A stretch of 64,000 nt of DNA, from assembly GCA_046563655.1 (NCBI GenBank), contig CM102286.1, positions 558,001 through 622,000 of the forward strand. Reading direction: 5' to 3'. The stretch's first letter is position 1. Every line of letters starts with the position of its first letter. Source of the DNA: Yuukianura sp. NJ FZ-2021. Its lineage: Eukaryota. Positions 3,453-63,534 of the stretch are shown in pieces. A program made the position numbers and the translations under genes. A model generated the notes under the pieces. That model saw only the letters and a program-made list of their open reading frames with translations. It did no database searches and was not told the DNA's origin.

Positions 3453-4713
3453 ATGCGCTGGTCAACTTTTCTTTTCTGCCAGTTCGTTGGTAGTTGTCTG
3501 TCTTTGTCGCCACCAGTCAGGTACTAAATACGAAAAATTTGGAATTTGGTTTTTAAAACTTACGATTAGTACTTTTAGGCTATGGTTAGGTGAAAAAAAT
3601 TAGTAATTTTAGTTTGTATTAGATTTTAGTAAACAAAAATGTTTGTTTTGTTTTGTTTTTTTTTTTTTGCAGTGTTTCTACAAATTGTAACAACCTGCAC
3701 CCAGCTCTGTTGAGACAAGCTTATGGAGCAAACTTGGTTGACTACAGCAAAGATCTGCCGAATACAAAACCGAACCAACGTAGCTTGTACCCACTGTTTC
3801 AATTTACATGCAACCAAAGAAAAAACTTCACACTTCCGTTCCAGGACAACGTCAAAATCCAAGTCCCCGATCAACTAATCCTCATGACCTTACCAACTGG
3901 AAGCTACTTGTCCACTTCAAAATGCTACACAAATTTCGAACTTTTGAAAACCGCCGTTTTTAGCAACATCCACGATTGGGAAAAATCTCCGCTTGGTTCG
4001 TTTAGTTCAACTGACGGAACAACCGAATTCACGATTCCACCTCACAAGAAATGTCTTATCCGAATTTCGAACAGAAGGTAGGAAATTTTTCTGATTTTTT
4101 GAAATCGTGGAATCTAGAAGAAAAAAAAACTGGAAATTTTGGTTTCGATGTCTAAAGGTACGAATTTGAAGCAAGACCTTCGAGTGTCTACGACCTCTCA
4201 GAAACCTCTTCGCCTTTGCTCGACAGCGACTTCGAGAGAGCTTTCAACGCTTTACCGGAGTCCCTGGGTTCGAACCAAGCTGTCTTTGATCAATTTTTTG
4301 AAAAGTATGGAACAGGGTACTACGCCAAGGGGTTTTACGGTAATGCCATTGACGTCTGGGTGCTGACAGAGAGATACGTAGAAGGCGGTGTGTCCACGGT
4401 CAAATCTGCTTTGGCAAGCTACAACCCTAACAGCGCTTACACAAATGTTGGCGGGTGGATCAAACTTAAAATTGACGCATCGAATCCCGGGAGTGCGGTG
4501 GATTCGACTGTAATTGTGAGATCGTCCAGTTCTGGACGGTGGTCTGAAACGGGAAAAGACATGTTTTCAGGTGATTTGGTCAACTTTGACCGCAGAAGCA
4601 TTTTGCCTCAAGGTCAAAGGTTAGACACTTTGGAAGAAGCAAAGGCAGTGTACTTGACGAACAAGAGATTCGAGAAGGACTGGAGGGGTGACTGGAATTT
4701 TAAGCGGGAGTGA
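3453..4713 (+). CDS. Secreted MACPF-domain-like protein (~342 aa), no C-terminal accessory domain
   Basis: Exons 3453-3520, 3673-4077 and 4158-4713 join in frame (GT-AG). N-terminus MRWSTFLFCQFVGSCLS is signal-like. The core LDSDFERAFNALPE...FDQFFEKYGTGYYAKGFYG resembles the MACPF F..al..LP...FF..YGTHY.....GG signature in degenerate form. The PLFQFTC...VPDQL segment resembles the MPEG1/perforin-like N-terminal region. Confidence 0.7.
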
Positions 4714-23437: not shown

Positions 23438-25033
23438 CAGTAGTGGACCAATTTTAGAAACCACGCTATCCCTCTTTCTCCTTTCTCTTTTACCGCCAAT
23501 TTCCAACAAGTGGAGGGAAGGCGGGAGCGGGAAGAGAACTTGTCAACAACACCAACAGTTGATAAATCTCTTCCTTACCTGTAGTTCCGGTGTTCTTTAT
23601 TATTAATTAAGTTAGAGTTAATCGTTAGTTGTACGGCTGTTTTTTGAGAATGCCAAAGTCGAAGTGCCTTACTTTAGAAACGAAACGTACAATCCTATCA
23701 GAGTTAGCAAATACTACAAGAAAAGACATCTGTGCTAAATACTCAATTACAAAATCAACAGTGAGCAAAATAAGCCAACAAGAAAACAAAATTACAGGAT
23801 TCACTGGGAACGCAAAGGTAAATAAAATCCATTAAATTTTACCTAAATTGTAACGGGAGGAAGTTTTCTGGCACTTATGTTTTTGATTGAATGTTGCATT
23901 TGTTTTTTTTTAGATCCGGAAATTTGTTGTTTCTGAGAAAGTGCTGGCTCAAGATGAAGTTTTATTAAAATGGATAGAAGGATTACGAAAACGGGGAATT
24001 CCAGTCTCCGGCGTTTTTATCCAAAACAAGGCTCAACTTCTGTATCCGTCTGATCCGAAAAAATTTTCTAGAGGGTGGCTGCGTCGATTTTTGGCCAGAG
24101 TCAACTACACAAGGAAAAGGATTTGCGGGGAGGAGTTGTCCGTAGATGTCACCAAAATAAATGAATGGAGGAAGTCTATTTTAGCAAAAAAATTGCCACA
24201 ATTTTATCCAGAAGAAATTTGGAACTGCGACGAGTCTGCACTTTTCTACAAAAAGGTTCCCACCATGACATACGACTTAAAAGGTAAATTTTTTTTAAAG
24301 AAAATGTAAATTTGGGCTCATTATCTTCTTTTTTTTACAATTACAATTTAAATTTGAAATTCTGTTTATAACAGGGAAGAAGTGCTTCGGAACAAAAGTT
24401 TCAAAAGAACGGGTGACGTTTTTGACCTGTTGTAGTAGTGATGGTCTTCGAAAGCTCCCACTTCTAATCATCGGCAAGTCAAAACAACCAAGGTGCTTCA
24501 AAAAAACAACAATTACGGGAAACTACATTTATCGTTCAACCAAGAATGCATGGATGACGAAGGTGGTTTTTTCTGAATGGATGACAACTTTGAATACTCA
24601 ACTTCAAACCGAAAACAAAAAAGTGCTGATGCTTCTGGACAATTTTTCTGGACACGTTTTAGAAGAAGAATTTTCGAATATTGAACTACTATTCTTGCCA
24701 CCAAATTCTACAAGTAAAACTCAGCCACTTGACTCAGGTATAATCAACTGCTTGAAACAGAAATATTCTGAGAAAATCGTAAATTATTTAGATAGTGGCA
24801 AAAATTTAAGTGAATTTAGCCTTGCCGACGGTGTGCAAATGATTTGTGAGTCTTGGGACCAAATTGAACCTGCTACGATTGTTAATTGTTTTAAGAAGTG
24901 TCTAAATGCTGATTAAAACCAAATTCAAGTCTACTTACGAGTTTTTCACATTACTGGAAGTTTTACGGTAACCGTGGGAGGAGTGAAATGAGAAGAGCCA
25001 ATCAGAGGAGTTTCTAAAATTGGTCCACTACTG
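23438..25033 (+). mobile_element. pogo/Tigger-family DNA transposon, full length (1596 bp)
   Basis: Perfect 24-bp TIRs CAGTAGTGGACCAATTTTAGAAAC. TA TSD at 23436-37 and 25034-35. Internal transposase gene. Confidence 0.95.
23650..24916 (+). CDS. pogo/Tigger transposase (HTH + CENP-B-type HTH + DDE_1), 359 aa, two introns
   Basis: Exons 23650-23817, 23914-24283 and 24375-24916 join in frame. Motifs FSRGWLRRF, WNCDES, KERVT, NAWMT, LLDNFSGH and QPLDSGII give a DD30D triad. Confidence 0.92.
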
Positions 25034-31900: not shown

Positions 31901-34900
31901 AAACAACCATAAAAGTTTAAAAGTAAAAGCAGATAAAAATTTTCCCGCCTGCATTTCAAATCCAACGGCTCATAAGACTTTTCTGAATCCTAGGCGGCAC
32001 AAATTGGCTGTTTGGCAAAGATATCAAAACACAAAGGAGTTTGAACGGAATTGGCTTTTCTGATGTTGGGACATTGTCATTTTAAATCCGAGTGACACAA
32101 AAGACGGCAAATTTCGAAAATTGGCGGATTGAAAAGTGTACAAAGGTTTTGAAATTGGGAGTGCCGCCTTTGACGGTCTATTGTTAGACTAAAGCTGCAA
32201 ATAAATTCTGAAAATAAATTTTACCATTGACAGTTTTGACAATGACGTTCTTCTCGGCTCCATCCTGCTCTAGCACAGTTCCATTGTAGATTTTGGCGAA
32301 AGAACCTTCCAGAATGACGCTCTGTAGACGCACTTTGCATCTGAAACAAAAAAAAATAAAAATTTTAAAAAAGTTTAAAATTTTAAAAAAGTTGACATTT
32401 TGAAAAAGTTATACTATAGCTAAGATATATCAAAAAAAAAAAGGAAAAAAAATTGTGGACAGTTAGGGTGCTTGTGAGGGGAAAAGGGCCAAAATTTCAT
32501 CATTTTTTTAGTGAAAGTCTTGACCTACCTTGGAATGGTCATCATTTCAGCGAGTTTGTTGCCATGACAACGCGTGTCCTGGTTGCCATGGCAACTGGAG
32601 GGCTTGTAGGTGTTGTTGGTTGACACTTCGGAGTAGAAGGGGGGTTCCGTGTTGGCATAGTAACCTGAGAAGATGCAGTCTGAGCTCTGGCGGGTGGAGA
32701 GGGATGAGTAATGATGGGCGGGTGAGTCAGGGCGAGTGAACAGGCTCCCACCGGATGCAGATCCAGAAGATCCATTCCCACTCGAATCTCTGCCATTAGA
32801 CAACAATCACACTAACATTCCACTTTCCAACATCATTCCACATCATCATTCCACATTTGAGAACATTCCACATCATCGTTCCACATTTGAGAACATTCCA
32901 CATCTTCATCTCTCACCACTTATCCGCAATATATCTTTCTCAAATCACCCCAAAACCAGCAGGCCACTTCCTTTCTCCATTCCCAGAACCATTACTCTTT
33001 ATGCTGACCTCAACTTAACTTTTTTGAAAAAAGTTTCTGGATTTCTGTATTTTTTTTTTGAAAAACTTACACATGAAGAAATCCATTTGACTCTGCATTG
33101 TGTCCGTCTTTTTTGGTCCGAGTGAAAGCAAAGGCCGCTACGGTGAGGACAATCAAAATAAAAACGAGGCCGGAAATGGCTCCAACCAGCACAAAAATCC
33201 AATTCGACTCTCCTGCTATTTCGTCAGTGTCCAAGGTTTCCAAATTTGAATTTTCCGAAATTGGTTCAACTTTTCCCGCTTTTTTGAAATCACTTTCTTT
33301 TGAAATCTTTTTGTCTTTTGAATTGACTGACGTTGGGTGGCCTCCAGAAACAACCACTGCATGACCTCGTTCCTTCTTTATCTTCTGGGGATCTAAAAAA
33401 GAAGCAGGAACAATGGATTTGAATTAGTCGGGAAAAAAAACCACGCCCACAAATTCCTTTGCGTCAAAAGTGATGTATTACTCAATTAAATGCATGTAAA
33501 AATGTGTAAAATGTGTAAAAATAAACACATTCATGTGTAAAATACACACATTCATGTGTAAAATGTTTACCTCTTAAGCAGATTCTTCTGCGCTTGAGGA
33601 CAATGGTGGTGACATTGAGTGTGCGCAGATGAGTCATGGACGTGACATTGATGCGCAGCTCAAAATTGACTTCGTCACTTGTCGTGCCAGTGCATGGGAA
33701 AAACACTTGAAATGTTTGAGTCTCCGTGGGAATGTTTCCTTTAGAAGAAATATTTAGAGATGGCTTGACCATGGCCTCTGAATCACTGAATTCCATCGAC
33801 ATGGTGTACGGCAACTTTCAAAAGAAATTCAAAATTTTGAAACTTTTTGAAATTTTGACCTAACCCAATCACACTACCATTTCTTGTACTTTAACAAACT
33901 CATCTCCGGTTCTGGTTAGACTCTTTGACACATGAAAGGATTTGAATCAATCAGAGCCCTTATTGTAAGCAGACGAGCAACTGGGAGCCCTTGGATCCAC
34001 TTTTATCCAGAACCCTTAAGGGAGCCCTTGACATGTCATAGGCAGGGTACTTATCAGTCCTATTTTGAGAAATGAGATTCTGGAGGGAGATTTAAACCTT
34101 TAGTCGGTGGAGATCTTTACAGAAGGTGCGGCACTTCATTGAAAACACTTTTCTCTGACGTCAATCAAACCATTGAAGGCTCCCGTAATCTCCTTACCAA
34201 AATCTCATTTTCAGTCCAACGCCTCTCCAATTTCCAAAGTTCGGATTTTGAAACTTTTTTTTTTAAATTTTAAAACTTACCGCTTTTTGTCCCAGTGTCT
34301 GCCAAGTAAAGTGGAGACCATCTACTTGTGGAGGAACTGGAACGGTGAACTGAAGAGCATAAACATTTGGAACTCCCTCGCGAACATAGTAAAGCTCATT
34401 CGACAATCCTGTAAAAATTTCAAAATTTTGAAAAATTATGACAAAATCTTGACACTTTTAGAAATTTTGTCGAAGAATTTCTTTTTTGAATATAATAGGT
34501 TAGGTGTGAAGACGAAAAGAGCGGCTATTAACGAAAATTTAATTTTCAAAGTTGGACAAAAGACTTAAGCTTTATCGTTTTAAATCTCCCTCTCTTTTCT
34601 TTTCGAAAAATTCCTTTCAAAATTTCTGCTCAAAATCGTAATCTCATTTCAAAAGAAAAAGTAAATCTTTCTAGGTTGTGGTGCGGCTACTAATTGGACG
34701 TAAGACAGTCTCCACCGCTTTGGCTTTTTTTTTTTCGAAAAACGGAATTTCTTTTCAAAAACTCCAATTTGTCCAATTTGAAGGCGAAATTCAAAAGAAG
34801 ACACGAAAGCCCGCGCTTTTCTTTTGCTCTAATCTCATTTCCTTGCTTTCTCCCCTCTTTCTCTCTCTTCTCAAATTTCTGATCTCTCTACTTTCTCTTC

Positions 34901-40781: not shown

Positions 40782-41558
40782 GGTTCCAGGTCATAACCGA
40801 CAATCCAAAAATCGACAATCCAATAATCGACAATCAATAATCGACAATTTCAAAAATCGACAATCCTTTAAGCGACAATCCTAAAATCGACAATTTCAAA
40901 AATCGACAATTTTAAAAATCGACAATTCCAAAATCGACAATTCTAAAATCGACAATGTCATAAATCGACAATCCCAAAACCGACAATTCCAATATTGATA
41001 GAAACCAGAAAGCAGTCTAACGGAAAAATTTTACTATCGCGGTGCTGAACACGAATATGCAATCAGATTTGTGTAGTTTCGCCAGACAACATGGTTATGA
41101 TTTTTTGAAATTTTGAAGTTTTTCTAACCCAGACTTATGTAGACAAACCCTACAGACGTAATCACTATTGTCTGCTTTACCAAACCTATCGCCGCGCCTA
41201 CGGCGCGGTACCGCATGCTAAGCTAGCCATACTTCATCAGTACTGCCAGTTGTGTCACTATAGCCAAACTTATAGAATACAACCTTCAACATACAGCGGA
41301 CGATGGTAAAATTTTTCCGTTAGATTGCGTTCTGGTTTCTAGTAATATTGGAATTGTCGGTTTTAGGATTGTCGATTTTTGACATTGTCGATTTTAGAAT
41401 TGTCGATTTTGGAATTGTCGATTTTTAAAATTGTCGATTTTTGAAATTGTCGATTTTAGGATTGTCGCTTAAAGGATTGTCGATTTTTGAAATTGTCGAT
41501 TATTGATTGTCGATTATTGGATTGTCGATTTTTGGATTGTCGGTTATGACCTGCTACG
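40782..41558. mobile_element. Foldback/MULE-type non-autonomous element with ~250-bp TIRs built of AAAATCGACAAT subrepeats
   Basis: Arms 40787-41038 and 41301-41553 are near-perfect inverted repeats. Direct repeat GAGTAGAT(G) at 40774 and 41559 gives an 8-9 bp TSD. Central GC hairpin CCGCGCCTACGGCGCGG. Confidence 0.88.
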
Positions 41559-46374: not shown

Positions 46375-48029
46375 ATGCTTGCAAAAATTATTTTTGTTGG
46401 TTTGTTTTTACAATGTCTGGCAACCGCCACTGAAGTTTCTGCTAAAGGTAAAGAAAAAATTCTGAAGTATTTGCAAATTCAAGTAAAATTTCAGTTTTTC
46501 AAAAAAAAAACTTAAAATGTTTGTAGAATCTGTGCAAGCCCCATCCCCAGCTAAAACTGAAGTTCCAGTTGCTGTTGAAGTCAAAGGTAAAAAAAAAACA
46601 ATTGATTGCTTTTTTCAAAAATTGTCAAAAGTAAAACTTTCAAAATTTTAATGTTTTCAAAAATTTTTTTCCAGAAACCGAGGAAAAGGAAACGCTTGAA
46701 ACTGCTGAAACTAAAGAAACCGCTTCCGGTGCTGAGCGTACACACGGCAGTTTCCTCCTGAACATTCTTCAAGGTCATCGGCCTCAAAAACCAACCGACT
46801 TAACTCAAAATCAACAAGATTTTGGCGCCAAAATTCAAACCGAAGACGAACAAAATTACTCGCAAGACTTTTTCGTCGTTACTGCCATCTTCAACCCAGC
46901 TTCCTACCAGTCTCGCTACGCCCTCTACCAGGACTTTGCCAAACACATTGAAGAAAGCGGTGCTCAACTGATCACAATCGAAGCCATTTTCCCCAGTTTA
47001 GGTCAAACTGAGTTCAAGGTCACTCAGAAAGACAATCCACTTCACTTTCAACTCACTTCCGATTCGGTTTATTGGGTCAAAGAAGATTTGATCAACGTTG
47101 CAGTTTCTCGACTTCCACCAAATGCACGCTGGGTGGCATGGCTTGATGCTGACATTTACTTTCACCATCCAAACTGGATAGCAGAAACAGTTTCTGCACT
47201 GGAGAGACACACCGTTGTTCAAATGTTCAAATACGCTCACTTTTTAAACGCCGAAGGCGAAATTCTTCGAACAGACTACTCTTTTGGCTACTCTTTGGTT
47301 CATGGTAAGCCGTTGCTTGGATTTAAACAAGATGATTGGTACCCGCATCCAGGCTATGGCTGGGCCATGTCGGTTGAAAATTTCAAAAAAATTGGCGGGC
47401 TTCCGGCCTACGACATAGTTGGAGGTGGAGACCTCTACTTTGCCTACACTTTGGTCAATCACATGTCAGATGTCATTGAAAAAGACTTTGATGAAGACTA
47501 CAAACAACGAATGAGAGAAGAGTCAGAGAAAACGTACAAACTACTTGTCGACATTTCTGCTGCCGATGAAAAGACTGTCGCCGGATTTGTTCCGGTTTCA
47601 ATCAGTCATCGGTGGCATGGAGCCAGAAAAGACCGAGGGTATGTCGACCGACTCAACATTTTGATTGCTCATGACTTCAATTACTTCAAAGACATGACCC
47701 GAGAAAGTACCGGTTTGCTTCGGTTCGGAAACGATACGGTTTCACTGCAACAAGACGTTCGTTGTTACTTTGAAAACCGGAATGAAGATGACATGAAAGC
47801 AGAGAAGTCGGAATGTCATTCTAACGACTACTTGTTGTACCTTAAGAGTTTGGTCGTGAGTCCAACGGCTAATGCTAATGCTGTTTGCAACTGCGGACAA
47901 CAACCACATTCTAACGCTGAACCAGGGCACTACTATGGTAAACAATACACTTACTACACTACGCAGAATTACCACAATGTCCTCGACACCAAGGCTTTGG
48001 AAGCAATCGTCAAACTTATCAAAAACTAA
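46375..48029 (+). CDS. Secreted GT-A-fold glycosyltransferase-like protein (~495 aa), bacterial/giant-virus-like family
   Basis: Exons 46375-46447 (signal), 46527-46586 and 46675-48029 are in frame. Motifs FNPASYQSRY, WVKEDLIN, VAWLDADI (DxD), VVQMF, HPGYGWA, GGGD, HRWHG and YFENRNED. TATA box at ~46268. Confidence 0.8.
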
Positions 48030-48370
48030 TTAACTTTTAGCAATTCAGTTTAATCTGATATTTTTAACAATTTTTCAAAATTTTCCAAATATTTATTTGA
48101 CGTGTTTATCATTTATTGTTTTTTATTTTTTTGTAATATTTATGAATTTCTATTCACTTGAAACATTTTTAAGAAATAAACTTCTTGAATTCTAACGCAG
48201 ATGGCGCCGATCTTTTTTAAGCAGATTTAAATTTTATTTCTTTTTCACACTTTTCATTTTTCGTTTAATTTTTCGTAATTTTGCTTTTCAATTTTTTGGA
48301 TTAATAAATTTTTTAATTAGGTTAGCATCACAATGATTTTTCGTCAGAATTGTCGTGACGTTTTCCCGCG

Positions 48371-48630
48371 TCACTTTCTTCCAACGCAAACCCATCTGCC
48401 GTCTTGCCATTTGCAAGTGGGCGGAGTGTTGCATCCGGTACAACCATTTTGGTCACATCGGCAACCTTTAAAATTTTAAATTTTTTAATTGTGGTTTTTG
48501 GAATTAAGAAATTTCATGCTTTCAGAGTGTAAGTTTGACCTGTGACCTTACCTTCAACTTCGTAGACAACTGCAGCCACAACAATAAGAGCAAGGACAAA
48601 CAAAACTAAAAAACGGTGTACAAATGACAT
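48371..48630 (-). CDS. Secreted 6-Cys peptide A (57-aa precursor; predicted mature CRCDQNGCTGCNTPPTCKWQDGRWVCV-amide)
   Basis: Exons 48630-48552 (signal) and 48465-48371, phase-1 GT-AG intron, ends GRK*. TATA at ~48721. A conserved paralog lies at 54867-55132. Confidence 0.88.
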
Positions 48631-48762
48631 CGTGTAGTTTGAATTTGAGTTTTGTAGATTTAAAATTACAAAAATGTAAATATCACAATTGGATTAACTA
48701 GTTTGAATTTTGGAAGTGTATTTATATGAAGCGCTTTTCCGGTTTGAGGTAGTTTAGTGTAG

Positions 48763-48772
48763 TGGTTTTCCC
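48763..48772 (-). promoter_or_regulatory. Dorsal/NF-kB-type site GGGAAAACCA ~40 bp upstream of the peptide A TATA box
   Basis: TGGTTTTCCC on + matches GGGWWWWCCM on -. Function is not demonstrated. Confidence 0.4.
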
Positions 48773-48983
48773 GCTTTTAAACACACTTTTAAAAATGGCA
48801 AAAGTTTCCTGTATGTTACTTGGAACTTCCGGTTAGTTTAAATTTCTTAAGACTTTTATACAACTGTAGTCGTACTGTACAAAAATATTTTTTAGCTTAA
48901 TTTATATCTAAGGTTGTGTTAAATAAATATGGTTTAGTTAAAGTGATTCACAAATTATTTCCATTTTGATGAATCTGCAACAC

Positions 48984-49367
48984 TCACGGAAAGATGAAGT
49001 CTCCTGGATACATTCCTGTCATTTAAAAACTTTTTTAGAAAATCACTTTGTTAACAAATTAGTTTTGACCTGAGTTTTGAAATTTCAACATTACGTTTTC
49101 GATTTCGATGGCTGTCCATGAACGGATCTTTGTTTTCAACAACCCATGCATTTTCTTCTATTTCGCTGTAAATGATTGGATCCAACACCTCAAAAGATTA
49201 GTTAAATGTTTTCACCTTTTTGAAAAAAACTGAATCCAACAAAGACTTTAATAATTTAAAAACCGCTAAAAACTTACCACTGGAAAATTGTTAAACAACC
49301 TGCGAAAACTTTCTACATTTGTCATAACCAAACTAAGAAATCCAAAAACTAGGAATATTTTGACCAT
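48984..49367 (-). CDS. Small secreted precursor (68 aa) with RNRKR site and C-terminal MYPGDFIFP
   Basis: Exons 49367-49278, 49229-49216 (14-nt micro-exon), 49165-49095 and 49015-48984, all GT-AG and in frame. Signal MVKIFLVFGFLSLVMTNVES. Confidence 0.6.
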
Positions 49368-50363
49368 TATGTAAAAAATTTAAAGTTATGATAAAATTTT
49401 TTCCAAAACCATTATGAAAAACTTATGTAACTTATGGAAACTTTTGTAATTAATTAAAAGTAGTTTCCAAATACAATCCTCTAATTTCTTGTTTCAACAA
49501 TAGAATTACTGGTCCCTTCTGCTCGAGTTTTATTTCAAACGAAGTAAAATGACGTTCGCTTAGCACACGAACAATTTTAACAATAGATAATTTAAATTTA
49601 AGACAATGGTTAACCTTGAAAATTTAGCCATGCAGTTAGTAACTGTGATTCACATGGTAATGTGGGTCAGGAAGTCAAATTCATCGAAAAAAAATTCGGA
49701 TTCCACTTAAAGAGTTGTGAAATTGTTCACTTACTCATAATTTGTTTTACTGATTTGATTAAATCTAACCAGACTGTACAAATTTTGAAATTACGAGCCA
49801 AAAAAAGATAATTTTTTAGAACTTGGATACAATCACAATAGCGTTGGATATCAACACTCTAAACAGCGTCATTTCCTGTCACCTACTCAAAATATGTTTA
49901 ACCATTTCTAAAATTCAAGTGCACACAACAACTAAACCCCAAAATCTCGAAATTCAAATCAAAATCCAAAATTTCGAATCCAAAAATGCGTTCTGCATAA
50001 AACGAAGTGTTTCTAAAACGAATTGAATTTTGACCATGGAATGAGTGAATGTTGTTTAGAGTTGGATTTTTGTGGACCATATGATAGATTACAGAATCTG
50101 TAGATAAAGATTAGAAGACTAAAGTTATGTAGGTACATAATATTTTTCAAAACATGACTAATTTTTTGGACGTGACAGATACAACAGTTTTTAGTGTAAT
50201 TTCGAATTATCAGTTGTCAATCACAAAGTTTGGCTGCGGTGAAGAATTAAAAGTTAGCAAAGAAATAAACTATAAAAGTGAAAGTCATTTTACAACAAAA
50301 ATTCCAAACTTGTGCCAACTTCAAAAAAAACTGTTTTAAAAAGAATTTCCAAAAATAAAAACA

Positions 50364-50832
50364 ATGGCCATCAAGTCCACCATCTTCATTCTTGCTCTCG
50401 TTTCTATCCTGGGCTCTGGTTACGGTAACTTAACATTTAAAAACTGTTCGGCTTAGTTCAAAAACCTTCCTTCTAAATTGAGTAAATATTGAATTAATTT
50501 TAAACTGAATTGATTCAATAGCTTTGCAATGCTACCAGTGTTTCTTCAACTGCTCCGACGTTGCGACCAATACGCCCAAGCAAACGTGCATCGGTAACAC
50601 TGATGATGGATGGGGCTGCGCCAAAACTTTTGTTATTGTTAACGGTGAGCACAAGGCAAGGACCCGATCATGCAGTTTCGTAAGTGACGACATGCTCAGA
50701 TGGTGCGGTGAAGAAGACGGCATTGGAACTTGCCACTGCAGGGGAGACTTGTGCAACTCTGCTTCATCCGTAACGCTCAATGTCGCCATGGCCCTTGCAC
50801 CACTCCTCCCCTGTCTTAAATACTACTTCTAA
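50364..50832 (+). CDS. Ly6/uPAR three-finger (quiver-like) protein, probably GPI-anchored, copy 1
   Basis: Signal exon 50364-50424 plus exon 50522-50832. LQCYQC...CHCRGDLCNSA followed by a hydrophobic tail. Confidence 0.88.
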
Positions 50833-51299
50833 AATAGTTCACTCACAACTTCAAGAAATACAACACACTGCTGTTATTCACTTAAAAAATGATGAAAATA
50901 TAAAATTTGTATATGTTGGAATGAATAAAACAATAAAAATTTTCCCACCGGACATCATCTCACAGACGTGTTTCTACTATAATCTCAAATTGTTCAATAA
51001 CCTTTTCAACCCACATTTTGTGGGTGTAAGTGTTAAAAGAATTTAGATATTAAAAAAAATTGAATAGACGAGATATACATTACATTGCTGTGGAACCGAA
51101 CAATTCATACAACGATGTTTCTTAAAAATATTAGGTTTTTTAAAGCAGAGTTTTTTGTGTCAGTGCTTTACTACGGAAAAATTGGGTAACCCTGAGGGCA
51201 AGGTTCCTATAGCAACAAAATAGAATTAACAGTTTAGGCAATAAGTCCCGATAGCAACAAAATAGAATTAACAGGTTAGGAATTTGAGGAATTTTTTGA

Positions 51300-51450
51300 T
51301 CTGCTGATGTGTTTACGTTGCTGATGTGTTTGACATGCTTATGTCTTTCCTGCTTATGTGTTTCGTGCTGATGTGTTTGCATTGCTTATGTCTTTCTTGC
51401 TTATGTGTTTGGTGCTGATGTCTTTTCTGCTTATGTCTTTTTTCTGATGT
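51300..51450. repeat. Short-period (~16-18 bp) tandem array GCT(G/T)ATGT(G/C)TTT
   Basis: About nine degenerate units. It produces the spurious ORF 51140-51382. Confidence 0.8.
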
Positions 51451-52154
51451 AATGGCGTGCTTTGGATTCAATCACAATAGCCTCGGATAGCAAAATTCTA
51501 ACGGCGATCCGTATAGTAAATCGGTCAGGAAGCCAAATCTCCGAAAAAAATCGGTTTATTCCTGATGCTCTTTCAGGAAAGAAAGTTTCTGCTACTCATT
51601 TAATTTAATTCACGTCCATATTGTACTTTTAAAATTATGCGTGATAAAAACAAGATATTTGTTCTTATAAATGGAGACCACAATTAAACGATTGAGATCA
51701 AAATTATATCTAGTCTTTTCCTGACGCGTTGCACGAAATTCTACAAACGTACATATTCTAGTAATTTTCTAACTTCAAATATGCAAAGAAAAAAATTGGC
51801 AAAAAAATGTTTTTTTAAAAAACGGGCATTTGCGCTGGTGACAATAATGGTCCTGAAACGAGTTCAATTTGCAATCAAGGATATTGTTGGACTTACGCTA
51901 AGTTGGATTTCCGTTAGCAATGTTAGATTAGATAAAAATAAAAGACAAGTTTCGTTTATCAATTTTTCGGAAAACTACTATTTTGCACTTCAGGCTTACA
52001 TTTCGGGGCCTAATCGCTGAGATAAGGTCAGACGGCTGAATTTTACGAGTCGCTTTAGAGATGGATATAAATGCAAATCATTTCCGTAAATCTGGAATAC
52101 ACGTCCCGTTATATCATTGTTCAAAAACTAAAGCAATAAAGACCCTCCTCAACA

Positions 52155-52609
52155 ATGACCATCAGGTTCACCATCCTCCTTTTGGCATTATTCGCTCTCC
52201 TTGGCTCCAGCTACGGTAGGGTAACACAACAAAGTTTCATATTTAATCCGACTTTGCAAATGTGTGTATTTATTAACTAAGTTTTTTCCGAACAGGACTG
52301 CAATGCTACCTTTGCTCCTCAGGACAATGTCCGGAAGTACCAACTGATGCCACTGTCCATACTTGTGCAATGGCCACTGAAGGCTGGGGCTGCTGGAAAA
52401 GTTTCCGAGAAACTGACGACGGTGTCGAGACGGGTATAAGCCGTGCGTGCGGTATGGTACTTGACCAATTGGTAGACGAGTGCGAAACATCATTTGGCAT
52501 TACAACTTGTTACTGCCGAGGAGATTTATGCAACAGTGCTTCATCCGTGACTCTCAATGTCGCTATGGCAATTGCACCACTCCTTGCATGTCTTAAATAC
52601 TACTTGTAA
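52155..52609 (+). CDS. Ly6/uPAR three-finger protein, probably GPI-anchored, copy 2
   Basis: Signal exon 52155-52215 plus exon 52296-52609. LQCYLC...CYCRGDLCNSASSVTLNVAMA, with a tail nearly identical to copy 1. Confidence 0.88.
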
Positions 52610-53289
52610 AAATAATTCTACTATAATAAACCACTACAACCAACCCAAATCCATTATTAGTCTGTTGTAATTTACCTAAAAAATGTAAATAATAAAAGAG
52701 GCATACCTATAGGGATCAATAAAACAAAAAAGAATGAATAGACTTGAATTATATCATCGTATTCAACACAATCTTGTAGTTAGTAGGCATAAAATTTGAG
52801 TGAAGCTTTCATTTTCCAAAGTCGAGTTTATTGTGTCAATGCTTTACAGGGGAAATGCTGGTGACCTTGAGGCTCAATTTTCGGTTGTATTTTTGATGCG
52901 CAATTTTATTTATCAAACTGTCATAAGTTACACCAATTACTTTGTAGATAGAAGGGAATAAAATTCCAAAATCAGTTCTTTTACTATGAACTACACTTCT
53001 ATCAAAATTTGGTGGTAAAGTGCTAAAAAAAAACTTTGGAAGTTTCCGAAGACCTACTATGAGTTCTTTTATTTTTCTATAACAAAAATCCTGAAACATT
53101 AGAGCATAGAAATAATTACGAAAAATAAGAAAGTTGAGCTTGGAATTGATGTGAGAATTACTTGGCTACGGAGATTCAGACGTTTTCAGAAATATTTCCC
53201 GTTTTTTAGGGTAACCACACAAGGTAAATAGAATATTACTAGGTAGTGCGGATAGAAAGTTTGTTTGGTTGCCATGTGGAAAAAAAAAA

Positions 53290-53430
53290 TGACGTCACCC
53301 GCTGAAAAATACCGGAATTCTGCGTATTAATGATGGTGTCCTATAGAAACCCGCAACCCGCATCTTGTTTACATAGATGCCAGCGGGTTAAAATATCACG
53401 ATTACGGTATTTTTTCAGCTGGTGACGTCA
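53290..53430. repeat. Inverted repeat with ~29-bp arms carrying TGACGTCA
   Basis: TGACGTCACCCGCTGAAAAATACCGGAAT versus ATTACGGTATTTTTTCAGCTGGTGACGTCA. Confidence 0.65.
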
Positions 53431-53741
53431 CAAACAAAAAATTGCGTTGGTTGCTAATGGTGCTGATTGCAGGGGGCTGGTATTGAGCTCGATTTTTGTA
53501 ACAAAAGTCCAAAAAATAGAATGTGCAAACTGTTACGGAAAACGAAAATTTCACCTTGGAATTGACTTGAAAGTTACTTAGCAAAGGACAGAGTTCTGTA
53601 ATTCATATATCCCACAGTTTCCAATATACTTTCACGTTTTTAGAAGAAGATTATTAACTTCTTATTATAAAAATAATTATTTTCAACATAAAAGATTTTG
53701 TTTTTATTTCACAAAGTATTTGGGCTGTTAGTGTATGATGT

Positions 53742-54218
53742 TTAGTTGATATATCTGACTCTGATTCTAATGTTACTGTCTCCACGCTTTCCAAATGTGA
53801 GTGTGCTTTGTTCACTGCGATCACTCAGAAATTGGGCCACAGTGCTTTCGATTTCACCAATTGTGTCATCCCGCTCCAGAGTCTCTTCGTCGTACAAATG
53901 AAACTTGATTCTGCAATTGTCTCGAACGTTGGCAAACTAAACATGTCCAAAATTTTCAAATAATTTTTCAAAGCTTCAGTTTTTTTTTTTGAATCTTACC
54001 CGATGCGACCAGTTCCAAACGGGATTGAGGCTACTGCGGATCGTCTGTGTTCTTTCTTTCTGATTACACACAGTGACACTCATGTAAGCATCAGTTGAAA
54101 ACGTATCCATCCGTCTCACTCTCCCACCAATAACTTCCACTAGCAAATCTCTACCAAATGCACCGTAGATGTTGCAGGCAAACAACAACGCTCCAAAGAT
54201 CAAAATTTTGGAATCCAT
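53742..54218 (-). CDS. Secreted stand-alone C2-domain protein (137 aa)
   Basis: Exons 54218-54000 and 53936-53742. Signal MDSKILIFGALLFACNIYGAFG, then C2 motifs MDTFSTDAY, RTQTIRSSLNPVWN and LYDEETLERDDTIGE. Confidence 0.85.
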
Positions 54219-54866
54219 TTTTAAATTTTTAGACACCAAAGAGCAAATGAAGAAACCTTTTGTGAAAAATTTGGAAAGAGACGTGGGTTTTATTTAAGAT
54301 GTTTTGAGTGAGTGTAAATTAGTTGTTTAACTAACCCTGATTATGACCAATTAACATTTGAATTCCAAGAACAAAAGCTTTAGCACAAAGTTGAGTAGAA
54401 TTTTAAGTGTGCGAAATAAATTAGCTTAAATTAACGTCAATTGACCACTCACAAGTAAGCTGACAGCTAAAAAAACAAGTTCTCGTTGAACTTGGAATTT
54501 TTAAAAAATTTTACATAAAAATTCGTTTAACACATTCGATTCCAAAAAAAAAAACATAATTCGACTATGAAACACGAAATTCTTAGAACGTAATTAACAC
54601 TGGAAATTCAAGTTTATATTAACTCTGTTTATTTGTTTCACCATTTTTTTAAACATTAGTGAAAGGTTGAAACATTTTTTGGAAATAAACTACATAAATT
54701 TTAACCCAGCCCGCGTCAAGCAGATTTAAATTTTAGGCTTATTTTTCATTTTGTTTAGTTTTTCATAATTTTCTTTTCAAAGTTTTGGATTAGTAAATTT
54801 TTAATTTTTGAATCAGTTAGCATTACAGTGATTTTGCTTGAGGAAATGTTGCAAAATTTTCCCGCT

Positions 54867-55132
54867 TCACTTTCTGCCAACGCAAGTCCATCTCCCGTTT
54901 GACCAACTACAAGATGGCGGAGTGTTGCATCCGGTACAACCATTTTGGTCACATTGGCACTGACCTTTGAAATTTTAAATTTTGAAATATTGGTTTTTGT
55001 AATTCTAAGAAATTTCATTATTTGAGAATGTAAGTTTGACCTATGACCTTTACCTTCTACTTCGTAGACCACTGAAGTCAAAACAACAAGAGCCACAACA
55101 AATAAAACTAAAAATCGGTGTACAAATGACAT
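54867..55132 (-). CDS. Secreted 6-Cys peptide B (58-aa precursor; predicted mature QCQCDQNGCTGCNTPPSCSWSNGRWTCV-amide)
   Basis: Exons 55132-55054 and 54964-54867, with the same intron position as peptide A. Ends GRK*. TATA at ~55223. Confidence 0.88.
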
Positions 55133-55591
55133 CGTGTGTTTTTAACTTGAGTTTTGAGAAATCAAAATAAGGAAAGTGTAAATATCAAAATTGGATTAAG
55201 CTGTTTGCATTTTGGAAGTGTATTTATACCAAGACATTACGCTGACGACGATAACTGATGACGATACCGCCGTGACCTACCGTATGACGTCTGTGTAGGT
55301 CTGTTTACCTGAACTTTGCATTTTTAACGAAACTTTACATGAAAATTCCATTAACACAGTCGATTCTAGAAACAAACAACACGTCATTCGTAGAACGTAA
55401 TTAACACTGGAAATTCAAGTTTATAATTAAAAATGTTTCAAGACTTTTTCATCAATTAAACCTGTTTTCATTCACATACCAAGTTTTTATATAACCAAGT
55501 TTTCACTAACCTACTAATTTTTTTTTTTTTTTTCAGACTCAGTTGTTTTTATTTCTGTTTTGGGTTCTACCTAATGCTTTTTTTTGTGGTT

Positions 55592-61100: not shown

Positions 61101-62326
61101 GTTTGGATTAGTTTTTGTTAGGATTCGTGAAAATCCTGTTCAGCCGGAAATTTAAATAGCGCTTCATTCAAAATTCAAATGGAAAGCGGGCAGGAAAAGA
61201 AGAACAATGGTGAAAGCTGCTTTCTCCAGCACAACTCTAATCCGCTTCCCCAACTGCCCTTAATTGATTCAAATAAATGCACAGCTTATTTTCATTAATC
61301 CATATGAATGAGTTCACAGCCCAACCTTCAACATGCTCAAAAACAGTTTCAAAATTTCCCAAGAAAATGTTCAGTTTCAAACTTTTAATTTACATTTAAC
61401 ATTTTTTACTTTTCCTGTCCACATTGTCTAGTTTCTTTTTACTTTCATGTTCATTGTCTACAAAACAAGACCGTAAAACATGAGAAATTGAAAAAAAAGT
61501 CGAAAATTTTAAAAATTGTTTGTTTCCCGCCTTAACTAAAATTGATAGTTTTGCTAACTTGACTTTTTGTCAGTGGTGTTTTGGTCTTCTAGGAATTCCA
61601 AAGTTATTCATGTTGAGCTCAACATGTTTAAGTTAGTTTTACTTTAGGTTTACATTAGGTTTTTGGAAGAAAAGGACTTGTTAAATTATTCACACGTTTT
61701 CTAAAGAAAATCGGCCTCCTGGGAGAGTCAGTTGGAGGTGTGCTTACAAAACGTTTTTGCTTAGACACTTTCCTCGTGGTTTCCCCATTTCCTCGCTTCA
61801 GTGTAATCATTTCCTCAAATTCCCATTATTAAAGTTGATCGAAATTCTGTTCACTCCTTTTCCATTTTCTCCTGTTTACATTCCGTTTTTCAAATACACC
61901 TCCAGGCTCATCGGAAATGGAAAACCACTTGCTCCCGCTCCTAAATTATTAATTTCACAAAACCCTCCCAGCAAAAACTCACTTTTCAAAATTCCCTCCC
62001 TTTTCGGTATTGATTAAAATCAGTTTTTCAATTTTAATCGATTTTGAACTCCAAAAACACGAAATAGTTTCGAGGTCGCTTTCTCCTCAAGAATTTGCGT
62101 CAGATATAAAATAACTTTAATTTTGATGAAATGCTTTAAAACTTACTTGACATGACCTTTGACCTTTGAAATGACCTTTGACTTTTTGAATTTCCTAGGA
62201 ATCTCTTCAGATATTTACTACGTTCGAGAGGGCGTGGTCAACGAGTACGCCACTTCATTTCTGGTGACGGTGCCCGCAGAAGTGGATGATCTCAACTTTT
62301 CATGGCAAGCTCTCACCAAACGACCA
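58163..62326 (+). CDS. Second RYK/Derailed-family paralog, first two coding exons (continues past the window)
   Basis: Exon 58163-58316 (signal, then NFNFYLDRREFQKLHG) and exon 62199-62326 (ISSDIYYVREGVVNEYATSFLVTVPAEVDDLNFSWQ). Exon 2 is 128 nt, the same as in the first RYK gene. Confidence 0.85.
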
Positions 62327-63534
62327 GTAAGTTTCACTTTTCAAAAAAAAACTGAAAGTTTTCAAAGTCAAATGCACAAAACAAACAAACTTTGTTTCCG
62401 CGGCTCTTTTTTCGAAAGGGGAGAAAACTTATTAAAACTTTGTTTCGCCCCAGGTTAGGCAGCAGAAGAAGTAAAAGTTGAAGATCCGTTTCTAATTACA
62501 AAACAGCAGGAAACGCTGTTGCTAAGCAACAACAAGCTTTTACTTGCTTCCTCTTTTCTTTAAAGTGAGTATGCGCAGCTCCATTCATCTTAATTAAAAG
62601 TGACACGATTAATTTTGGTGAAAGACTTTTCGATTGAGAGGGAGAAAGTGGGATTTTCATTGCCAATGTTTCTATTCAAGAAACTTTTTATTTGAAAAGA
62701 AGGACATTGATTGGACAGTCACAGTAGGTGGGCCAGTTGCCAAAATTAGTTTTTTTCAGAAAACTCTTCAAAAAAGACTTTTTTGAAATGAAAAACCAAA
62801 AATTGAAAAAGTCATTTCGGGTGGATCTGGAGCCAATTTGAGTTTAGAGTAATTTTGAGTCTGGCGACTTCCAGCAGTGACATTATTATATTCGAGGACA
62901 AAGGAAAGAGAAAATTGATGATGACGGTGGGGCGGTGGTGGGGCAGAGTTATGGTGGGGCGTGGTGGGGCGAAAGCAAAGTTGGGCATGTCAAGTTTTTT
63001 AAGTTTTGTCTTTCCATTGTTTTCAAAATTTTGAGACAAGTTTTATAGAAACAAAGAGATGACAAATTTAAGCTTCGGTGTCTGTCCTGCCCTGATAACT
63101 TTTTCTGATAAATGGACGTGACAAAAAGGCTCCGTGTATTTTTTTTAGAAAAAAAAGTTTTTAAAAACTCACTTTTTTGAAAATGATAGACTCCTGGAGG
63201 AAGAAACTAAAAATTTGAAACTTTCCCGGGATTTTGGTGTAGGCTAGTCCGAGATTTGGGGAAGGGGATTTATGCCTAGTAATTAGTCACTAGAAAAGTG
63301 GTAGTTTTTTTTTAATTTTAGTGTTTGAACACCACTTTCAAATTTTTCTCCCAGCCAAAACCATAACTTTTAAAATGTCACACTCTTTTCTCCTTCAAAA
63401 TCACATTCTAAGCCACACTTATTTTTAATTATACTCAAGCACGCACATAACCTAACAATTTTGAAAATAACTACAACGATTTTGACATTTTCAAAATCAA
63501 AACAAAACCTCTTTCTCAAAAATTGAGTTCAAGG

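Follow-up and report, generated by a model that had tools for sequence, protein, structure and literature searches.

The locus examined here lies in a 64,000-nt stretch of DNA from Yuukianura sp. NJ FZ-2021 (GenBank assembly GCA_046563655.1, contig CM102286.1, positions 558,001 to 622,000 of the forward strand; the whole stretch is referred to as the window, and positions count from its first letter), and it raises the question of whether two very short, split genes encode secreted six-cysteine peptides of an undescribed family, and what such peptides might do. A sequence-only reading of the region had claimed two genes, A and B, each encoding a signal peptide, a 27-28 amino acid peptide with the framework C-x-C-x4-C-x2-C-x5-C-x8-C and a terminal Gly-Arg-Lys (GRK), and all of this, coordinates included, holds for the spliced models. 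Both genes lie on the minus strand with two exons each, at 48630-48371 (A) and 55132-54867 (B), and encode precursors of 57 and 58 amino acids, respectively, without internal stops after splicing. We regard it as highly probable that A and B are real genes yielding secreted peptides.

Gene structure, splicing and duplication

In gene A, the coding part of exon 1 (48552-48630) carries the signal peptide (best 11-residue hydropathy mean 3.74) and runs for 79 nt from the ATG at 48630, that is, 26 codons plus 1 nt, ending in phase 1. A predicted 86-nt GT..AG intron (48466-48551) follows, and exon 2 (48371-48465) contains the predicted mature 27-residue six-cysteine peptide at 48463-48383, the Gly-Arg-Lys at 48382-48374 and the stop. 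Gene B is built in the same way, with 79 nt of signal-peptide coding sequence from the ATG at 55132 (55054-55132, phase 1), an 89-nt GT..AG intron of the same position and phase (54965-55053), and an exon 2 (54867-54964) in which the predicted mature 28-residue peptide begins with Gln (54962-54879) and is followed by Gly-Arg-Lys (54878-54870) and the stop. The cysteine spacing of 1,4,2,5,8 is thus the same in A and B, both of which end GRK-stop, and a six-frame scan of the window finds this framework at two places, versus none in 100 shuffles. The exon-2 frames extend for only 34-35 codons between stops, and exon 2 of gene B is overlapped by a 128-amino acid read-through open reading frame (ORF) in the wrong frame.

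Splicing of gene B is seen in run X1, a single public, unlabeled contig set that we guess to be RNA. One contig of this run, of depth 2.2, aligns to 54903-54962 and to 55052-55175 with 89 bases left out, which have CT..AC ends when the cut is placed at +2, and the base run skipped is exactly the B intron as predicted beforehand. The sequence-only reading had named a lack of spliced transcripts as the result that would speak against it, and this contig supplies a spliced form of B; the splicing rests on one contig from a single study, whose source may alternatively be a processed DNA copy. A second X1 contig spans the 3' untranslated region (UTR) of gene B with 11 differences, and the run therefore derives from a different individual or from a close relative. 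Gene A, its intron included, and the genes lying between it and B are without real cover in run X1, which counts neither for nor against their expression.

The duplicated unit runs in its A copy from 48158 to 48726 (minus strand) and aligns with 54667-55228 at 79% identity over 582 columns, taking in the TATA box, 5' UTR, both exons, the intron and the 3' UTR, and identity of this level from TATA box to 3' UTR argues for a recent tandem duplication. The TATA boxes (48720-48726 for A and 55222-55228 for B, both on the minus strand) lie 96 nt upstream of the ATG in both genes, and at the box of A the similarity between the two stops; since the sequence upstream of the B box is unrelated to the A promoter, what was copied extends no further upstream than the TATA box. 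A 48-nt direct repeat (94%) stands on both sides of gene B, at 54571-54618 and 55378-55425, within a 146-nt repeat of 75% identity, and no transposon ends were found around the gene. Searching the organism's own 98.7-Mb genome by protein, by DNA and by tight pattern returned two copies only, A and B, a count that applies to paralogues within the reach of these searches, beyond which more divergent ones could lie. The framework-only pattern matched 76 times in this genome versus 104 times in the control, and the matches other than A and B are trinucleotide-repeat tracts by eye. Three of them were translated, one of which (L036) is an unrelated cysteine-rich gene that we take to be twisted gastrulation. 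A hairpin pattern gave two further matches in the same genome, both unrelated.

Relatives and the search for a described family

A scan of metagenome contigs yielded 95 candidate stretches, four of which passed the filter, and two of these, L052 and L053, are real members of the family, with 77 and 71% identity, respectively; both are animal contigs of one assembly. The other two, L054 and L055, are chance matches of 8-9 residues. In viral contigs, all 11 pattern matches proved to be cysteine-repeat noise with frames that were wrong or broken by stops, and of 26 candidates in GTDB genomes the four that passed the filter were all partial and were rejected on reading.

L052 and L053 share with A and B the signal-peptide exon, a phase-1 intron at the same place (62 and 69 nt, respectively) and the same cysteine spacing, and their tails are shorter, GR-stop in L052 and G-stop in L053 as compared with GRK in both A and B. 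In the alignment of the four sequences, 16 of 31 columns are invariant, giving C-x-C-x4-C-x-G-C-N-T-P-P-x-C-x-W-x2-G-R-x2-C-V-G. The conserved core that had been proposed from A and B survives here in part, in that G-C-N-T-P-P and W-x2-G-R are kept across species and the whole CDQNGC core is not; likewise, the tryptophan segment, previously written W-x2-(D/N)GRW, is actually W-x-(D/N)-G-R-W, with one residue between and not two. Over the mature region, the proportion of synonymous differences (pS) in the four cross-species pairs is 0.59-0.99, which is near saturation, versus 0.19-0.29 for the proportion of nonsynonymous differences (pN), and this high pS with low pN argues that the peptide is translated and constrained by purifying selection. 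Between species, the introns are ~50% identical, the level for unrelated AT-rich DNA.

The hosts of the two relatives can be placed approximately. A carboxylase exon beside the L052 gene has 89-91% identity to Folsomia candida, 85-87% to Orchesella and 84-85% to Allacma, and the copy in the Yuukianura genome is 84-86% identical to that of L052 and to those of F. candida, Orchesella and Allacma, and 70% identical to a beetle protein that carries a low-quality mark. On these sequences, the L052 host and our genome both look like springtails separated about as far as named orders, a placement that depends on a single exon of 165 residues, for which tree support is modest. No synteny between L052 and our genome was found, the carboxylase gene being on another contig of the latter. 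The L053 host is placed only through a JHBP exon, 86% identical to a gene in our genome, and it may be the animal of L052 or another.

Two observations concern the relation among the members. B and L052 begin with Gln, whereas A and L053 begin with Cys and have promoter boxes in common, despite the recent duplication of A and B; this split may be the trace of two old subtypes that conversion has blurred, or a case of convergence. In addition, the L053 contig carries a second orphan, secreted-looking ORF of ~65 codons with six cysteines (x7, x3, x5, x10, x1) at 3637-3831 on its minus strand, tail to tail with the family member and ~550 nt away, for which there was no Pfam family, a best Atlas score of 0.78, only PDB matches with E of at least 0.37, and nothing in our genome by this query.

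The sequence-only reading had suggested a possibly new scaffold, and the searches bear this out, with no described family matched among Pfam, the PDB, known folds, the representative library or literature motifs. Pfam gave no family at E ≤ 10 for any of A, B, L052 and L053, and PDB sequences gave no match to B or to the four-sequence profile. A library of 1.84 billion representatives returned one match, a 1057-amino acid repeat protein in which 14 residues are matched nine times and which is a repeat artifact; in the control for this library, L052- and L053-like precursors would score E values of 7e-7 and 1e-5, and there are therefore no relatives of ~70% identity among its representatives. 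In the Atlas, no score reached 0.9, and the best (0.87) was to an unnamed 30-amino acid cluster of mixed families with no stored model, which is a lead only. None of five Foldseek rows reached E ≤ 0.001, and VIA-align gave no chain with Z of at least 2 among 48,161 for the first structural model and none of four for the second; the models have 31 residues, and these nulls therefore do not show a new fold. A literature search with four peptide motifs found none of them, most subscription papers and supplements lying outside it, and searches on springtail antimicrobial peptides (AMPs), neuropeptides, cysteine-rich peptides and immunity turned up no such family among the papers listed. Firefly peptides that have been likened to springtail proteins differ in their cysteine spacings. 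The family therefore seems undescribed, with a cysteine spacing absent from the libraries searched, the kind of molecule being familiar and the scaffold apparently new.

Processing, predicted fold and candidate functions

All four sequences combine a predicted signal peptide with a terminal Gly and optional basic residues, the arrangement of an amidated secreted peptide. In a terminal GRK, the basic residues are trimmed by carboxypeptidase and the Gly is used by PAM to make the amide. Of the earlier proposal of convertase cleavage and amidation, the amidation is strengthened by the GR and G tails of the relatives, because the Gly after the last Val is invariant while the basic residues vary, and the cleavage is superfluous, a terminal GRK needing no convertase cut. 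The signal peptide is probably cleaved at the exon junction, where in all four sequences the residue at -1 is small and that at -3 is small or Val (V-x-G or A-x-A), though this site is read by rule and an earlier cut is possible; if it is correct, the N-terminal Gln of B and L052 may become pyroglutamate. With the predicted ends assumed, the net charge is +2 for A, 0 for B, +4 for L052 and +3 for L053. The oxidized, amidated peptides would have calculated monoisotopic masses of 3022.2 for A and 3027.1 for B (3010.1 with pyroglutamate), and cleavage of the signal peptide further upstream would add a short, acidic extension at the N terminus.

A structure prediction, which the sequence-only reading had proposed as a check, was run with AlphaFold2 and gave two β-hairpins and no helix. 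The models made with two and with four sequences have the same strands (3-5, 8-10, 17-21 and 24-28), with mean predicted local distance difference test values of 78.0 and 74.7, and the two hairpins are linked by the invariant Asn-Thr-Pro-Pro (NTPP). From the strand registers of the models we infer disulfides C1-C4 and C2-C3 in the first hairpin and C5-C6 in the second, the main rival being the knottin-like pairing C1-C4, C2-C5, C3-C6. The second hairpin would be similar to a Trp-zipper, in which two Trp residues (one of them Arg in L053) would stand opposite each other across a turn of Asn-Gly, Asp-Gly or Gly-Gly. Designed hairpins are stabilized by cysteines at their flanks, by Trp pairs across the strands and by Asn-Gly turns (PMC7915549), and the C-terminal half of the family would unite all three, with the Trp pair in three of the four sequences and a two-residue turn in the model; however, the designed Trp-zipper and disulfide-cyclized hairpins are engineered, whereas the family is a natural gene product whose pairing is deduced from strand registers.

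A closer comparator among natural peptides is the four-cysteine scaffold xCxCx4CxCx of protegrins, arasins and xibalbin 10 (PMC5577568), with which the first three cysteines of the family agree, but the fourth follows at x2 and not at x1, and two more cysteines come after it. The β-hairpin AMP class is characterized by a single hairpin, 11-25 residues and a net charge of +1 to +8 (PMC13001179), whereas the family has 27-28 residues and two predicted hairpins. Its likeness to protegrin, gomesin, tachyplesin, the arasin C terminus and xibalbin 10 lies in the C-x-C-x4-C start, the short hairpin of the model and the cationic charge of three of the four members, to which the family adds the Cys-x8-Cys hairpin and the NTPP linker, B being neutral and the peptides hydrophilic. 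Gomesin also carries an amide and a pyroglutamate (PMC13001179), much like the predicted ends of the family. Mammalian α-defensins share with it the six cysteines, a similar size and an all-β structure. Their spacing is C-x-C-x3-4-C-x9-C-x6-10-CC, with a C-x-C-x4-C start as in the family and a Gly-Arg-containing last hairpin. This pattern is absent from all four sequences, which lack a terminal CC and a long propiece, carry an amide signal and have an extra cysteine two residues past the third. There is no Pfam or PDB match, and the likeness is a resemblance and not homology. The α-defensins have 29-35 residues and the disulfides I-VI, II-IV and III-V (PMC5366907).

The sequence-only reading had also held that the spacing fits neither CS-αβ defensins nor knottins, which is the case for all four sequences. 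The CS-αβ motif, in which CxxxC precedes a CxC near the C terminus and a helix is present (PMC5577568), is absent from each of them, as is the helix from both models, and there is no adjacent CC of the kind found in inhibitor cystine knots and Alo. The six-cysteine peptides described from springtails themselves, namely diapausin (C-x3-C-x9-14-CC-x9-11-C-x6-9-C, with two helices), the knottin Alo (C-x6-C-x7-9-CC-x3-C-x10-C) and defensin (C-x5-6-C-x3-C...C-x-C) (PMC10051947), are likewise secreted in the same animal group from precursors of ~60-85 amino acids, but their spacings are all unlike that of the family, and the form of diapausin is not found in it. The spacings of the remipede xibalbins 1-12 also all differ (PMC5577568).

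It is very improbable, in our estimation, that the peptides are deterrents or toxins directed at the ion channels of predators or parasites. Venom peptides are commonly of such a size, with three disulfides and an amide, and low-ranking Atlas rows include toxin families with scores of 0.77-0.80, but shuffled proteins reach the same level and the families disagree; moreover, there is no knottin or CS-αβ motif, and the few copies under purifying selection are unlike diversifying toxin families. A springtail is, in addition, described as non-venomous (PMC11209139).

The longest invariant run of the family falls within the third-to-fifth cysteine segment, and this bears on the idea that G-C-N-T-P-P-x-C might act as the rigid binding loop of a protease inhibitor, by analogy with Bowman-Birk inhibitors. 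The plant Bowman-Birk loop is CTP1SXPPXC, of nine residues, and the frog loop is CWTP1SXPPXPC (PMC7760496), and C-T and P-P-x-C do recall the former. However, the motif is lacking in all four sequences, which have ten residues in place of nine, a Cys within the loop where Ser is required, Gly at P1 and a variable Thr (Arg in L053), and there is no Pfam or PDB match to any inhibitor family, so that we think an inhibitor role quite unlikely. Pacifastin inhibitors have the spacing C-x9-12-C-x2-C-x-C-x2-3-G-x3-6-C-x4-C. This pattern too is absent from all four sequences, with no match to a Pfam family.

The promoter of gene A also bears on function. A putative site that matches the Dorsal (NF-κB) consensus GGGWWWWCCM (as given in PMC3009591) exactly lies at 48763-48772 on the minus strand, 46 nt above the TATA box, and is one of two exact sites in the window. 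A second box, AAACCGGAA at 48737-48745 (minus strand), which was noticed after the fact, is common to gene A and the L053 gene, in the same order. We presume the AAACCGGAA box at gene A to be ETS-like. By a promoter score, none of 61 TATA-anchored control segments comes as high as A, and the Dorsal-type site is a lead to Toll/Dorsal control, though not proof of it.

We tentatively place first, at somewhat short of an even chance, the reading in which this is a springtail family of secreted, amidated, three-disulfide host-defense effectors that bind a specific conserved target and are non-lytic. The ranking follows from the gene layout, the first half resembling hairpin AMPs, the gomesin-like end modifications, the cationic charge of three of the four members, the Dorsal-type site, and the orphan cysteine peptide beside the L053 gene. 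The precursor would enter the secretory route and lose its signal peptide at the exon junction; three disulfides would form, the basic tail would be trimmed and the Gly converted to a C-terminal amide, with cyclization of Gln in B and L052; and the chain would fold as two disulfide-stapled β-hairpins joined by the Asn-Thr-Pro-Pro linker. Copy A would be induced via the Toll/Dorsal-type promoter site, the recent duplicate B being under a different upstream region, and the peptide would bind a conserved microbial surface component or enzyme instead of lysing membranes. The invariant NTPP linker and W-x2-G-R face would suggest binding to one conserved partner, and simple membrane lysis fits badly because B is neutral and all four values of the grand average of hydropathy (GRAVY) are near -0.7. 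Of the functions put forward by the sequence-only reading, a lytic AMP thus appears to fit poorly, a toxin seems to lack support, and an inhibitor of the Bowman-Birk kind does not have the expected loop.

Several points weigh against the defense reading, which draws on sequence and model. In the promoters, the L053 gene shares the ten-base core above its TATA box but is one base off the Dorsal consensus, and in B and L052 the 700 nt next to the ATG are free of Dorsal sites. The boxes had already been seen when the promoter score was devised, five of 3,194 sliding segments reach it, comprising A itself and three unrelated places, and the boxes occur in only one of four cross-species pairs. As to the peptides, B has a net charge of 0, all four are hydrophilic (GRAVY -0.66 to -0.82), the length and the two hairpins fall outside the β-hairpin AMP class, and only two copies were found in the 98.7-Mb genome. 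The predicted template modeling scores of the structural models are 0.31 and 0.32, and the disulfide pairing is therefore a deduction. Finally, conservation this strong and unusual would suit a receptor ligand as well.

Such a ligand, that is, a lineage-restricted signaling peptide that would engage a host receptor as a hormone, a neuropeptide or a cytokine-like ligand, is in our judgment unlikely. It would account for the amidation signal in all four sequences, the possible pyroglutamate in two, the purifying selection across distant springtails, the low copy number, and the neutral and hydrophilic character of B, but the peptide stands directly after the signal peptide in an exon of its own, with no propeptide or dibasic site before it and no Pfam match, its charge ranges from 0 to +4, and it has no conserved C-terminal aromatic-amide motif. 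The recent tandem duplication with a change of promoter and the Dorsal-type site at A also count against signaling. The lack of a Dorsal site at B, the copy seen spliced, is relevant to a further alternative, in which the peptides are constitutive components of cuticle, gut or a secretion (lectin-like or metal-binding) with no immune or signaling role. Small, secreted, cysteine-rich peptides with an exposed aromatic hairpin would suit this, yet the conserved amidation Gly and the precise six-cysteine spacing are better suited to a folded bioactive peptide, no chitin-binding or metallothionein profile matches, and we assign the idea a low probability. In the case of B, the promoter has one loose Relish-like word, of a pattern that matches 41 times in the window.

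Neighboring genes and the place of the family in springtail biology

Between A and B are two tandem two-exon Ly6/uPAR genes (50364-50832 and 52155-52609, plus strand) with signal peptides and hydrophobic tails, whose Quiver-like PF17064 matches fall below the cut-off (E of 0.0048 and 4e-5) and whose last 116 nt are 84% identical. Beside gene B, at ~53760-54218 on the minus strand, a small two-exon gene has a lone C2 domain (PF00168) after an apparent signal peptide and would encode a secreted C2-only protein. Left of gene A, a long uninterrupted ORF (46635-48029, plus strand) has weak glycosyltransferase-2 likeness and 16 relatives, those with names including Folsomia candida (51%, the best named) and a bdelloid rotifer (39%), and the patchy spread of these relatives suggests horizontal transfer. 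Elsewhere in the window are an exon of a MACPF/perforin-domain gene (4156-4713, plus strand; PF01823, E 2e-5), a tandem array of ~130-nt units (1234-1760), a 253-nt inverted repeat of 97% identity (40787-41553), and DDE_1 transposase pieces in two frames (23914-24916, plus strand), presumably of the pogo/Tigger type. A WIF-domain exon (33482-33817, minus strand; PF02019) and a second ORF similar to it by eye (62156-62458, plus strand) may represent two receptor genes of the Ryk/derailed type.

Arthropod genomes commonly contain new families of cysteine-rich peptides, which limits the interest of this one until an activity is shown. Springtails inhabit microbe-rich soil, and one springtail AMP survey found only homologues of insect families; being homology-based, it would not have found this six-cysteine family (PMC10051947). 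The family is too short and too split for ORF callers and is missing from the protein libraries searched, yet it is sufficiently conserved to be traceable across springtails. With 27-28 residues, the peptides are within reach of chemical synthesis, which opens their fold, disulfides and activity to direct testing. Whatever its function, a natural hairpin that combines a disulfide, a Trp pair and an Asn-Gly-type turn would be of interest to peptide engineers. A bolder reading, which we hold to be rather unlikely, is that the family represents a class of animal peptide of its own and new, whose natural two-hairpin scaffold with a built-in Trp-zipper is kept near-constant through deep springtail lineages by the binding of one conserved partner. 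This partner might be a microbial target that known AMPs do not use, with the peptide under Toll/NF-κB control, or else an orphan host receptor, in which case basal hexapods would have in it a new hormone or immune cytokine.

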